Assembly: GCA_963695545.1 (NCBI GenBank)
Contig: OY968796.1
Coordinates: 1,024,001 to 1,088,000 of the forward strand
Source of the DNA: Terriglobia bacterium
GTDB taxonomy: Bacteria; Acidobacteriota; Terriglobia; Acidiferrales; UBA7541
Length of the DNA: 64,000 bases
Direction of reading: 5' to 3'
Position 1 is the first letter of the stretch; each line of letters opens with the position of its first letter. Positions 20,737 to 62,276 of this stretch are shown piece after piece. Position numbers and translations under genes: made by a program. The notes beneath the pieces are model-generated. The model did no database searches, was not told the origin of the DNA, and saw only the letters and a program-made list of their open reading frames with translations.

Positions 20737-21366
20737 ATGAGATATCTAAAAATCGTCACATTACTTGGCGCTTGCTTGCTCTTCGTACCTTACGCGCACG
20801 CACAAGGAGTTGAGGTCGGCGTTGGAGTCGGCCCGGCCTACGTTGGACCAGCTCCCGTGTGCGCCTATGGCTACTATGATTATTACCCCTACGACTGCGC
20901 GCCCTACGGCTTCTACGGCCCTAGCTGGTTCGACGGAGGCGTCTTCATCGGCGCCGGTCCGTGGTTCCACGGTCGCGGCTTCTACGGAGGCCCCGGCTAC
21001 TACGGCCGCGGTGGCTACGGCTACGTTGGTCGCGGCGGGTACGGCTACGCCGGGCGCGGCGGGTACGGCTACGCTGGACGCGGCGCCTACGGTGGACGCG
21101 GCTTTAATCCCGGCGGACCGATCGCCCGCGGAAGCTCACACGGTGCCTACGAAGGTGGCGGATACGCTCGCGGTTACTCTGGCGGCAACGCACGCGGCGG
21201 CGGTGGCTACGCACGCGGCGGAGGCGGGGGTTACGCCCGCGGTGGTGGCGGTGGCTACGCCCGCGGTGGTGGCGGTGGCTATGCACGCGGTGGTGGTGGC
21301 GGAGGCGGCTTCCACGGTGGTGGCGGTCACGGTGGCGGAGGGGGCCACGGTGGCGGACATCGCTAA
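20737..21366 (+). CDS. Secreted Gly/Tyr/Arg-rich low-complexity protein
   Basis: Signal peptide ending AHA-Q; 'PVCAYGYYDYYPYDCAPYG' two-Cys motif; GGYGYAGR and GGGGYAR repeats. Confidence 0.8.
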   Translation: MRYLKIVTLLGACLLFVPYAHAQGVEVGVGVGPAYVGPAPVCAYGYYDYYPYDCAPYGFYGPSWFDGGVFIGAGPWFHGRGFYGGPGYYGRGGYGYVGRGGYGYAGRGGYGYAGRGAYGGRGFNPGGPIARGSSHGAYEGGGYARGYSGGNARGGGGYARGGGGGYARGGGGGYARGGGGGYARGGGGGGGFHGGGGHGGGGGHGGGHR

Positions 21367-58576: not shown

Positions 58577-60109
58577 TCACAACAACTCCTCCTCGATCAC
58601 CACCCCAACTTCGGTCCCTGCCGCCGCGGCGAATTCCGCTGCCACCGGAAACCCCCGCGCCCAAACAATCGCGCCGGCACTGGTAAGCACCGGCCAGCCT
58701 GCGCGATCGCGTCGTGAAATGCGCGACTCGAGCAGCAGCCGTTTCAACTTGCGATTATGCCGCCGCCCGGAAGGACGAAACGTATCACCCGGAAGCCAGC
58801 TCCTCACCACCAGCGGAGAGCGCAACCGATCCCGGTCGAGTGCAATCTGCCCAACTCTAGTTTCGCCCGTGGCTCGCGGCCAGTCAATCAATTTGAGCCG
58901 GAGTCGCCGGCCGATTTCGGGGACCGCGACCTCGGCCGATTGCGCGCCTTCAATTTGAACCGGATACTCGAAACGCGAGGCTTCGCGAGATGCGGCCGCG
59001 GCCCGCGACTCGGTGCTGTCCGCGGGCACCGCGAAAAAGCGGACCATGTCAAAATTGCGCTCCACGCGCACGCCCGGCAGGTGTGTTTCTGCGCCGCTCG
59101 GCGATCTCTCTTGCTGGCCCGCGCCATCCGAGTGAGAACTTCTCGCGAGGCGCAGCACCTGATCGGTGTGGCGTGCCGTGAGTCCCATGCGATCACCGCG
59201 CAATTCTTGATAAATCCGCCGCACCAAGCGCCGCGAAAATGCCGCGGAGGCGAAAGCGGCGCCGACGCCGGGGGCGGCGCCCGGAGCGGCGCCCGGAATC
59301 GCAAAACCGGCTGGCTCGAGCAAGTCGGCCGCGCGAATCGAGATCGTGCCCGAAGCTTCGCGCTGCGTCTTGCTTTGAAACGCTGCGGCAACCCACGAAT
59401 CCCAGAACGCTTCTTCGTCTGCCGCCAGCGACGCGAGCCGGCACAACTGCGCCACCATCTGCGGCTCGAAATCTTTTTCGAGAAACGGCAGCAGCCGATG
59501 CCGGATGCGCGCGCGCAGGCGCGTGGTGTCTTCGTTCGTCGAATCCTCGCGCCACGGTTGCCCTGCGGTCACCAAGTACTCGCGCAATTCACGCCGGCGA
59601 ATTTCAAGCAGAGGCCGGACGATCGTCCCAAAGACGGGATGAATCCCCGCAAGTCCGGTCAGTCCCGTGCCGCGCACCAGATGCGCCAGCACGGTTTCAG
59701 CCTGATCGTCGGCCGTGTGCGCAACAGCCACACGTGTCGCGCGGCCTTGCGCGACGACTTGATCGAAAAATTGATAGCGCAGCCTGCGCGCGGCGTCTTC
59801 GAGATTCCAGCTTTTCTGGCGCGCGACCCCGCGCACATCCTGCGCGCTTACTTCACAAGCCGCGCCGAGTGCCGCCGCCAATTCTTCGACAAAACGCTGA
59901 TCGGCATCCGCGTCGGCGCCGCGAAGCTGGTGATTGAAATGCAAAACCAGAAGACCAATGCCCAGCCGGTCGCGCAATTCCAGCAAAATCCGCAACAGCG
60001 CGACCGAATCGGCGCCGCCGGAAACGGCAACGCCCAACGTATCGCCGGCGCGCACCATCCGCTGCCGCGAAACGCTATCGAGAATCCGCGATTGAATTGA
60101 GGATTGCAT
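58577..60109 (-). CDS. tilS: tRNA(Ile)-lysidine synthetase
   Basis: 'AVSGGADS', 'AHTADDQAET', 'RGTG', 'RPLL', 'EDSTN', TilS C-terminal domain; upstream of ftsH. Confidence 0.95.
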   Translation of the reverse strand: MQSSIQSRILDSVSRQRMVRAGDTLGVAVSGGADSVALLRILLELRDRLGIGLLVLHFNHQLRGADADADQRFVEELAAALGAACEVSAQDVRGVARQKSWNLEDAARRLRYQFFDQVVAQGRATRVAVAHTADDQAETVLAHLVRGTGLTGLAGIHPVFGTIVRPLLEIRRRELREYLVTAGQPWREDSTNEDTTRLRARIRHRLLPFLEKDFEPQMVAQLCRLASLAADEEAFWDSWVAAAFQSKTQREASGTISIRAADLLEPAGFAIPGAAPGAAPGVGAAFASAAFSRRLVRRIYQELRGDRMGLTARHTDQVLRLARSSHSDGAGQQERSPSGAETHLPGVRVERNFDMVRFFAVPADSTESRAAAASREASRFEYPVQIEGAQSAEVAVPEIGRRLRLKLIDWPRATGETRVGQIALDRDRLRSPLVVRSWLPGDTFRPSGRRHNRKLKRLLLESRISRRDRAGWPVLTSAGAIVWARGFPVAAEFAAAAGTEVGVVIEEELL

Positions 60110-60252: not shown

Positions 60253-60660
60253 CTACCTCTTTGGAATCTGACCGCTCATCAACGCGCGGCTCGAAGCAAT
60301 CCGATGATCCAGCGCCACGGCCGCAAAGTAAGCGCATCCGCCGCGTTCGCCCTCGAGCCAATCCGCAAAGCCGCGCGACGTCCATCCCAGCGAAGTACGC
60401 ACGCCGCCCAAAAACGCGTAGTAGAGGCGAACTGGAGCCAGCGCCGGACCGCTGCCGGCCAGCACCGGGCACAGGCGCATCAGTTGCAGCACGCGGCCGA
60501 ACTCGCCTCCGCTGACATTCCGCACGGTGAAACCCGTGACCGCTCGCGCTTGTCCCGATAGCTCCAGATCCCGCGATGCGCGAACCAACGCGTGGCAGTA
60601 GCAGACGAAAAACTGCAAGAGCGCGGTTACCGAGATCACGAGAATCAGAAAGTCCATCAT
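60253..60660 (-). CDS. 135-aa hypothetical protein with an N-terminal TM helix (third gene of the peptide module)
   Basis: ATG 60660 overlaps the TGA of the 7TM gene (ATGA); MMDFLILVISVTALLQFFVCYC... The longer ORF-track start at 60930 lies inside the upstream gene. Confidence 0.75.
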   Translation of the reverse strand: MMDFLILVISVTALLQFFVCYCHALVRASRDLELSGQARAVTGFTVRNVSGGEFGRVLQLMRLCPVLAGSGPALAPVRLYYAFLGGVRTSLGWTSRGFADWLEGERGGCAYFAAVALDHRIASSRALMSGQIPKR

Positions 60661-61376
60661 CGGTTCGACATCGGATCCGAAATCGGACCGGAAGCCGCGA
60701 CGCTGGCCACAGCCAGTCGCGCATCCTCGCCGACTTGCGAATAGGTGTAGGCCCACGCGGCGGGCAGGCAAATTCCCAGAATTGGCGGCATGTATTGCCA
60801 GAGTGTGATGCGTGGATAGAGATTGCACAGCGCATACGTCGCGGCAAATGCGCTGAAATAGACGCCGAGCGAAAGCACGAACTGAATCAGCCGAGTGCGC
60901 GTCTCGCGAAGCTTCATCACCGCGCCCCACAGAACGTAGGTGAGCACCAGACCCACGAAATAAAGATTCTGCGAAAGCTCCACCACAAACAGCGTCAACA
61001 TCTTGCCGTGCGACGCTGCCACAATCTTCAGCGAGACTCCCGCGGTGGCCAGCAGGATGAGCATCGCTCCTGCTCGAACGTATTTTCCCAGGCCCAGTTC
61101 AGCGAAAACGTGCGTGTACAAACCCATCAGCACGAAGAAGAGAAAGATTGACAACAGTACGTCGGAATAGAAGTAGAAATAAAAGTATTGGTGGGAATTG
61201 TAGCCGTGAGTTTTCAGGATGCCGTAGCTGACAATCGTGAAAACACCCGCTGTCACGATGTACAGATTGAGGGTGAAATATTTGAAAAAGGACTTGGAGC
61301 GGATTGCGCACACCAGTGCGAGAGCATCCATAAGGACGCTTGCAGCCCATAACACGTAATCAGCCGGACTCAGCAA
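60657..61376 (-). CDS. Hypothetical polytopic membrane protein (about 7 TM, no soluble catalytic domain)
   Basis: 239 aa with seven hydrophobic segments by eye; TTG start preceded by GAAAGG. Confidence 0.8.
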   Translation of the reverse strand: MLSPADYVLWAASVLMDALALVCAIRSKSFFKYFTLNLYIVTAGVFTIVSYGILKTHGYNSHQYFYFYFYSDVLLSIFLFFVLMGLYTHVFAELGLGKYVRAGAMLILLATAGVSLKIVAASHGKMLTLFVVELSQNLYFVGLVLTYVLWGAVMKLRETRTRLIQFVLSLGVYFSAFAATYALCNLYPRITLWQYMPPILGICLPAAWAYTYSQVGEDARLAVASVAASGPISDPMSNR

Positions 61377-61403
61377 CCATGCCTTTCAGCAGCTGAGTCC
61401 GAC

Positions 61404-61430
61404 AAACTAAGGCCAACGAGGCCTTAGTTT
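61404..61430. other. Intergenic stem-loop between the peptide gene and the 7TM gene
   Basis: aaactaaggcc-aacga-ggccttagttt, a perfect 11-bp stem, extendable by agctga/tcagct. Confidence 0.7.
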
Positions 61431-61437
61431 TTCAGCT

Positions 61438-61776
61438 TCAGCTCACCACCGCGGGCGGTGGTAGAGGCGGAACCGGCCCACCGATATTAGCGGTGAGTAC
61501 GCTTCCCCGGGCCGGCGGCGGTAGTGGCGGAACTGGCCCACCGATATTAGCGGTGAGTACGTTCGCCCTTACCGGTGGTGGTAGCGGCGGAACTGGCCCA
61601 CCGATGTTAGCGGTGAGCACGTTCGCCCTGGCCGGCGGTGGCAACGGCGGAACTGGCCCGCCGATGTTAGCAACGAGTGCGCTCGTGCCGGCATGATGCG
61701 CCGTCACGACCCCACCCATGGCTCCCGTAAGTACCAACAACGTTGCTACTACGACTACTGCGAGGTACTTGGGCAT
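61438..61776 (-). CDS. Secreted multi-core repeat peptide precursor (4 x NIGGPVPPLPPP)
   Basis: GGAGG RBS, ATG 61776, 112 aa; signal-peptide-like N-terminus and four 20-aa repeats. Confidence 0.85.
   Translation of the reverse strand: MPKYLAVVVVATLLVLTGAMGGVVTAHHAGTSALVANIGGPVPPLPPPARANVLTANIGGPVPPLPPPVRANVLTANIGGPVPPLPPPARGSVLTANIGGPVPPLPPPAVVS
61451..61682. repeat. 60-bp coding tandem repeat, about 4 copies
   Basis: Lines 61441/61501/61561/61621 align in register (ggcggaac(c/t)ggccc(a/g)ccgat(a/g)ttagc). Confidence 0.95.
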
Positions 61777-62150
61777 ATAGCCCTCCGAGAGAGACAACAA
61801 CGGAGGGACTATACACCGAACTGTGCCAGAATGGTACTAAAGTACTATTTTTTCTTCGTACGCGAACACCCCCGGCTTTGGCCGTCCCGGCGGGGTCTAG
61901 CCCGCCAAACCGGCCAATTGCCTGGAAATGTCCCGCTGTCAGGGTAAGAACACGGACCATCGCGAACAATAGTACGGAAGTTCTAATGGGCTAACGGATT
62001 GGAATCTCGTGACGCAGCACCTTCCTCGAAGCTGTGCCGTTGCGGCACAGAGCGCCCGCGGCGCAGCCTCCGCTGGCTCGACGAGCGTCTTCCGAACTCC
62101 GCGTGCCGCGCTACGCGGTGTTATCCGAGCTGTGCCCGGCTTTCGCGCGC

Positions 62151-62201: not shown

Positions 62202-62276
62202 GCCGGCGTAGCTCAGGGGTAGAGCGAGGGTCTCATAATCCCTAGGTCGTGGGTTCGAGTCCCACCACCGGCACCA
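62202..62276 (+). tRNA. tRNA with CAT anticodon, most likely elongator tRNA-Met
   Basis: GCCGGCG acceptor stem, D-arm GCTC/GAGC, anticodon loop CT-CAT-AA, GGTTCGAGTCC T-arm, encoded CCA. The G1-C72 pair argues against an initiator tRNA. Confidence 0.93.

Follow-up and report, generated by a model that had tools for sequence, protein, structure and literature searches.

Repeated cores in the precursor gene

The minus strand of the window (the whole stretch of 64,000 nucleotides analysed here) carries an ORF in which one proline-rich peptide is written four times. The ORF at 61438..61776 encodes 112 aa (ATG at 61776, TGA at 61438), has orthologs, and matches no Pfam or NCBIfam family. Its product consists of a basic N-terminus, a hydrophobic helix, a short pro-region, and four cores, in which ANIGGPVPPLPPP occurs four times with a period of 60 nt. 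Read from Asn, the cores lie at 61633..61668 (copy 1, NIGGPVPPLPPP), 61573..61608 (copy 2), 61513..61548 (copy 3), and 61453..61488 (copy 4), all on the minus strand. An earlier note on this DNA, which was confined to the precursor, had listed the four copies as 13-codon strings with only silent differences between them; the ORF and all four strings agreed with our reading.

The four copies differed at 9 nucleotide columns, which required at least 10 changes, and every change was silent, including a first-position change in a Leu codon (TTG/CTA). Given 31.6% synonymous sites, the probability of this pattern was ~1e-5 with a core boundary drawn post hoc. Because that boundary was picked after the identity was visible, the test was redone on the whole 20-codon units 2–4 (31% synonymous sites), where 11 changes were silent and 3 were replacements (P=3.3e-4). 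These results support a real ORF with purifying selection on the repeat. The linkers ARANVLT, VRANVLT, and ARGSVLT read as claimed earlier and do change amino acids (3 replacement changes), but they also carry 4 silent changes and are constrained as well, and for this reason the contrast between cores and linkers was borderline within this single gene (Fisher P=0.051).

Six contigs from RNA libraries (four runs of one study) covered the precursor gene within 61351-61871 at an identity of at least 99%. They are a weak hint of expression, and DNA carry-over is possible because the contigs come from one study without a silent-stretch control. No such contig covered the two genes downstream (described below), although absence from contigs proves nothing. 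A perfect 11-bp hairpin follows the precursor stop codon on the same strand (61404..61430, z=-6.1) and is a possible terminator or stabiliser; as a family-wide feature it was rejected, since z was -2 or lower in just 16 of 88 orthologs. Elsewhere in the window, Gly/Arg/Tyr-rich 24-nt tandem repeats at 20994-21302 are unrelated to these genes.

Peptide variation and processing

The precursors of relatives share the core pattern N-G-G-[AG]-P-x-P-P-x-P-[WYF]. The conserved unit thus begins at Asn across the family, not at the Ala chosen in the earlier note, and the mature peptide of the precursor studied here is likely NIGGPVPPLPPP. Among 102 unique precursors, 26 had a single core and 76 had 2–7 exact copies, which agrees with the proposal that the core is the likely functional unit. 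Silent changes between copies were present in all 76 multi-copy precursors, a count from which replacement changes are excluded by construction. The copies were the same within a genome and different between genomes: 77 distinct 11-mer cores were found among 88 precursors, and the two nearest relatives carried other cores. Mean core identity rose from 0.38 to 0.91 as the identity of the neighbouring seven-transmembrane (7TM) protein climbed from 40% to >90%. A comparison of the core in relatives had been suggested as a check on its function; the cores do diverge, but this does not refute a function and fits lineage-specific signals.

One ORF (L045, glutamyltransferase-like by eye) was a false pick and was removed from the precursor counts, and the distant loci L031-L050 were left out of the promoter and core-diversity counts. 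As loci L051-L129 partly duplicate L001-L030, counts were taken on unique precursors where stated. Six unpublished genomes (G007, G013, G026, G043, G106, and G357) contributed single rows to several counts, and no claim is solely theirs.

The leader (61672..61776, minus strand) resembles a signal peptide, as had been suspected; judged from charge and hydropathy, its h-region extends to near GAMG and is followed by a pro-region of ~14 aa that ends in L-V-A. Of the 102 precursors, 95 had a K or R among residues 1–6 and none had a lipobox Cys. Across the family the L-x-A site lay a median of 16 residues past the h-region motif, and Ala preceded the first copy in 65 of the 76 multi-copy precursors. 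The leader would presumably be cleaved at this site. The earlier note had observed L-x-A ahead of each of the four copies and proposed it as a general cleavage site. The motif does precede each copy, but its Ala doubles as the first core residue of that proposal, and across the family the rule fails: among 192 later copies the preceding residue was A in 53, K in 42, R in 26, H in 18, and S in 14. In view of this frequency of Ala (53/192) and of the many linkers of 0–1 residue, cleavage after L-x-A does not extend to internal copies in general, and it can at most account for the first cut. The linkers between cores span 0–9 residues with mostly a single K or R at most, so that dibasic Kex2 sites were not found between cores, and no single cleavage rule fitted all internal copies.

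A 7TM protein with a predicted GPCR-like fold

Downstream of the precursor lies the gene of an orphan 7TM protein of 239 aa (60657..61376, minus strand). An AlphaFold2 model built on 147 sequences contained seven helices (pLDDT 91.6, pTM 0.86), and its fold is predicted to be GPCR- or rhodopsin-like. A Foldseek search with the model gave no match at E<=1e-3 (best 9.4e-3, GPR20), and all 49 matches shown were of GPCR or rhodopsin type. In the VIA search the top match was a designed GPCR-like fold (Z 14.5, rmsd 4.4, 206 residues aligned), and the best 50 rows were all 7TM proteins of GPCR or rhodopsin type, with Z 10.7 at rank 50. The comparison with EP2 (Z 13.3, rmsd 4.2, 195 residues aligned) agrees with a GPCR bundle and topology at a score near the common-bundle level, as helical bundles can reach Z ~13 through arrangement alone. 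Sequence identities in these fold matches were 6–17%. Lys and Arg were placed in loops 1-2, 3-4, and 5-6 and in the C-terminal tail (positive-inside), and on this charge distribution the topology is predicted to be N-out/C-in.

No Pfam or NCBIfam family, including the GPCR families, matched any of 44 members; a sequence search of the PDB gave no match, and the Atlas search returned unnamed Acidobacteriota clusters only. A retinal-binding Lys in TM7 was present in at most 1% of the 147 sequences at positions 196-213, and 29% had a Lys at position 214, at the cytoplasmic end. No column of the same alignment reached 60% Cys or His, and the catalytic Cys/His or EE..H..H residues of AgrB or CAAX/Abi proteins were not found in the 7TM protein, which has no family match. 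The top 150 matches of the 7TM profile were 95–426 aa long, and no fusion to a kinase or another enzyme was detected among proteins of 500–2000 aa, which is a weak test.

The outer half of the 7TM protein was more variable than the inner half (45% vs 59%), and its conserved residues are S61, Y64, Y68, D72, E133, Q136, and N137. Peptide similarity followed the outer half no more closely than the inner one (partial r 0.15 vs 0.23), and co-evolution of the peptide with the pocket was thus unsupported. Complex prediction with residues 1-225 and a two-core 33-mer gave a score of 0.01 in a run whose controls did not fold, which counts neither for nor against binding.

The partner protein and conservation of the gene order

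The third gene (60253..60660, minus strand) encodes a 135-aa partner with an N-terminal membrane helix and a helical body, and its start overlaps the stop codon of the 7TM gene as ATGA, an overlap seen at 106 of 109 loci. In the model of the partner (pLDDT 82) a long helix at the N-terminus is followed by a small body of helices. It had no fold match (no Foldseek E<=1e-3, best VIA Z 7.1), and neither Pfam/NCBIfam nor HAMP/MCP matches were found.

The order on the minus strand is precursor, 7TM, and partner, followed by tilS (58577..60109), a common downstream landmark outside the system, and ftsH. Upstream, a divergent tRNA(CAT) gene on the plus strand (62202..62276) is a conserved landmark, present in 46 of 49 main-clade loci scanned. 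This tRNA, called Met by ARAGORN, lies ~2 kb from tilS. The substrate of TilS is tRNA-Ile2.

At 79 named loci the precursor was intact in 73, at a contig edge in 4, and frameshifted in 2, and the partner was present at 77. Frameshifts, from assembly error or decay, were seen in the precursor (L053, L083), the 7TM gene (L040, L037), and the partner (L002). The 7TM gene occurred in 48 of 61 related (Acidiferrales-like) genomes and in 33 of 36 genomes of the same family, and the closest named relatives of its product (71%) were Candidatus Acidiferrales. The profile search returned 1,153 clusters at 50% identity. In a sample of the phylum, 26 of 301 genomes, mostly of the same class, had a match, in a search limited to few scored candidates and not free of false matches; L156, L157, and L132 are likely false.

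Judged from sequence starts, the recurring neighbour families at 129 loci were the partner, tilS, ftsH, and unrelated genes, and no tailoring enzyme recurred near the cassette. No dedicated exporter recurred at the loci, no linked regulator recurred at the main locus, and no heterotrimeric G protein gene was found at the loci; such genes are not expected in bacteria.

Paralogous cassettes

The same genome carries a second, distant cassette with a single different core (C1:2565375-2567100). This cassette has a REC/HD-GYP gene downstream and an XRE gene with a divergent unknown ORF upstream (C1:2565375-2568357), and the latter pair was present at 9 of 24 distant loci. Several paralogous cassettes whose peptides differ occurred together in one genome, and distant paralogs kept the three genes in the same order and encoded other Pro-rich peptides. 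Their neighbours included genes for REC/HD-GYP, GGDEF, PilZ, REC-LuxR, kinase, cyclase, and XRE proteins; as these 60 ORFs were hand-picked from 172, the list is not an enrichment test. Tandem 7TM gene pairs were seen at L138 and L143 and a tandem peptide gene pair at L155, and some distant cores contained two Cys.

Promoter motif and leader RNA

The upstream regions of the precursors share the motif TAGTAC-N4-GTACYRTTG; in 74 of the 88 regions a distal copy lies directly against a -35-like element. The precursor studied here has two copies on the minus strand, a proximal one at 61829..61847 (24.9 bits) and a distal one at 61967..61985 (19.2 bits), which precedes a TTG -35-like element; both were scored with the own locus left out of the matrix. 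A -10-like box, TATAGT (61808..61813, minus strand), whose position is conserved in orthologs, would belong to the proximal promoter, and the region 61781-61985 likely holds two promoters. A second palindrome of the GTGT..ACCGTTTAGACAC type was present in 53 of 88 orthologs and is degenerate in this region.

Directly after the -10-like box, CCCTCCG and CGGAGGG form an anti-SD/SD hairpin on the minus strand (61781..61807). In 81 of 88 orthologs the SD of the precursor was paired in this way, against 110 of 1,760 shuffles. The 5' arm lies 2–6 nt past the -10 box; a transcript from the proximal promoter would therefore lose most of the arm, whereas the distal promoter would give a transcript with the arm intact. 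In computed proximal transcripts the median dG changed from -13.8 to ~-5, and the number with a paired SD fell from 63 of 72 to 22–42. A resemblance of the leader to a c-di-GMP riboswitch was rejected, as Rfam gave no support.

The motif also preceded unlinked partner paralogs, at 5 bits or more in 23 of 32 against 10 of 640 shuffles and mostly 53–72 nt upstream; one cassette copy (L250) was left out of this count. Stand-alone partner paralogs are common across the family, and the motif matrix pointed to a tandem pair in the genome studied here, at C1:1707124-1708056 (1707124 and 1707664), with a GTAC motif before each gene. The shared motif thus joins these unlinked genes in one likely regulon. 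Genome-wide, 25 matches reached at least 12 bits, within the 14–57 given by column-shuffled matrices, and for this reason weaker sites near PilZ, kinase, TonB, and SLT genes are not claimed. A Zn-ribbon XRE gene was considered as the regulator of the motif and dropped, as the motif reached 10 bits at only 2 of 29 orthologous loci. This gene (C1:662692-663492) encodes a regulator with a Zn-ribbon-like CxxC and an XRE-HTH, present in 41 of 41 genomes of the family at ~68–94% identity. A strong motif site precedes a divergent PadR gene nearby, in this genus only.

Discussion

We consider that the three genes probably encode a lineage-specific exported peptide signal, its 7TM receptor, and a relay partner. 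The precursor would be exported via Sec and first cut after (V/I/L)-x-A directly ahead of the first core, and other periplasmic proteases would part the tandem copies, the repeats giving more peptide per transcript. The cognate 7TM protein would bind the core in its outer half (S61, Y64, Y68, D72, E133, Q136, and N137), and the partner may relay the signal to kinases or c-di-GMP enzymes whose genes are unlinked. Feedback would come from a regulator acting on the GTAC motif; this regulator may also drive the stand-alone partner paralogs, which would form a possible damping loop. The two promoters may act as a switch: the proximal transcript alone, freed of the anti-SD arm, would allow the precursor to be translated well.

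Several points count against a signal and its receptor. No output domain was found fused to the 7TM protein in the weak test among proteins of 500–2000 aa, a regulator linked to the main locus was not seen, and the fold of the partner is without a match (best VIA Z 7.1). The Foldseek E-values of the 7TM model are weak (best 9.4e-3), and a Z of ~13 can be reached by helical bundles. Specific co-evolution of the peptide with the outer half is unsupported, and there is no single cleavage rule. In a diderm envelope, a peptide of ~1.1 kDa must cross the outer membrane to act between cells, and this barrier also counts against the reading.

The envelope also bears on the alternative of a cell-autonomous sensor, in which the peptide stays periplasmic or tethered to its helix and the 7TM protein reads export capacity, periplasmic proteolysis, or outer-membrane leak instead of cell density. 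The diderm envelope, the lack of a recurrent dedicated exporter, and the distance of L-x-A from the h-region motif (median 16 residues), an unusually long distance for a classical signal peptidase site, all favour this explanation, and precursors with zero-length linkers would serve uncleaved as multivalent ligands. Lineage-specific cores (77 among 88) and several cassettes per genome, however, suggest discrimination of identity, and we regard such a sensor as unlikely, if worth keeping in view. It is less probable still that the 7TM protein processes or exports the peptide as an AgrB-like protein or RiPP-type maturase, with the receptor elsewhere. The precursor adjoins a membrane protein as in agrBD, multi-core precursors are common in RiPPs, and polar residues (S61, D72, E133, Q136, and N137) are conserved; but no Cys or His is conserved at 60% among the 147 sequences, none of the 44 members matches a Pfam or NCBIfam enzyme family, the fold matches are receptors, and no tailoring enzyme recurs nearby.

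Multi-copy Pro-rich precursors also resemble the insect apidaecin precursors, and the variation of the peptides between lineages would suit a Pro-rich bacteriocin with a 7TM immunity protein. The cores, however, are uncharged and have none of the Arg/Lys content of Pro-rich antimicrobials, the cassette holds a fixed position by the tRNA and tilS in most genomes instead of a patchy mobile spread, and the paralogs have signalling neighbours, which together make a bacteriocin very improbable. Least probable of these explanations is a membrane-anchored Pro-rich structural or surface protein with repeats kept alike by a scaffold role. The N-terminal hydrophobic helix and the PxPP repeats would fit it, and release of free cores is itself conjectural; against it, 26 of 102 precursors have a single core, the linkage to the 7TM and partner genes is strict, and the copies are residue-identical within a genome while the linkers vary.

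The reading as signal, receptor, and relay partner is thus preferred. In its most far-reaching form, which we find possible and put forward tentatively, it would describe a eukaryote-style peptide hormone system of Acidobacteria, a dominant phylum in soil, with a polyprotein pheromone precursor, a GPCR-fold receptor that stands alone, a new class of membrane-anchored transducer, peptide dialects specific to each lineage, a two-promoter switch under autoregulation, and transducer paralogs as decoys; the system would control c-di-GMP-linked behaviour.

Compared with known systems, the cassette appears most like α-factor/Ste2 in design and most like Agr/Com in gene layout. Yeast MFalpha1/Ste2 and the fungal Kex2-processed repeats share with it a signal peptide, a pro-region, tandem identical species-specific cores, and an N-out/C-in 7TM protein; unlike them, the bacterial cassette has no dibasic KR/EAEA spacers, its putative receptor gene is adjacent and paired with a membrane-anchored partner instead of a G protein, and no sequence homology was shown. 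Agr (AgrBDCA) and ComCDE also have a peptide gene beside a polytopic membrane protein, pherotype-like variation, and a likely autoregulated promoter, whereas the cassette resides in a diderm host and has a multi-copy precursor; its stand-alone 239-aa 7TM protein carries no histidine kinase domain, and neither a response regulator nor AgrB or a ComAB exporter is linked to it. Multi-core RiPP precursors (cyanobactins and graspetides) likewise combine a leader with repeated cores, but the leader here is of a hydrophobic Sec type and the loci show no recurrent tailoring enzyme, although an unlinked one is possible. SRII-HtrII resembles the cassette in that a 7TM protein is co-encoded with a membrane-anchored partner, but the 7TM protein here has no TM7 lysine and the partner no HAMP/MCP match. 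Bacterial 7TM sensor domains include 7TMR-DISM and HisKA_7TM. In bacteria and archaea, sensor domains of kinases and cyclases can have a GPCR-like 7TM fold (PMC13581589). In contrast to such domains, the 7TM protein of the cassette is stand-alone, has no Pfam match (44 members), and has a dedicated peptide gene upstream. The cassette is missing a defining feature of each of these families: the kinase, the catalytic Cys/His, the retinal lysine, the dibasic spacers, or the tailoring enzyme.

The literature searched held no description of this three-gene system; subscription papers and closed supplements may hold one, and the system is apparently undescribed. Gram-positive bacteria provide the best-known peptide pheromones, and eukaryotes the best-known polyprotein pheromones that act through 7TM receptors. 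For Acidobacteria, which abound in soils, the literature searched contained no paper on a peptide cell-to-cell signal. The pair of a peptide and a GPCR-fold protein, for which ~77 variants of the putative ligand exist in nature and a target promoter motif is predicted, is directly testable with synthetic 11–12-mers. If true, the proposed system would be relevant to how peptide-binding 7TM receptors arose and may help in growing uncultured Acidobacteria.
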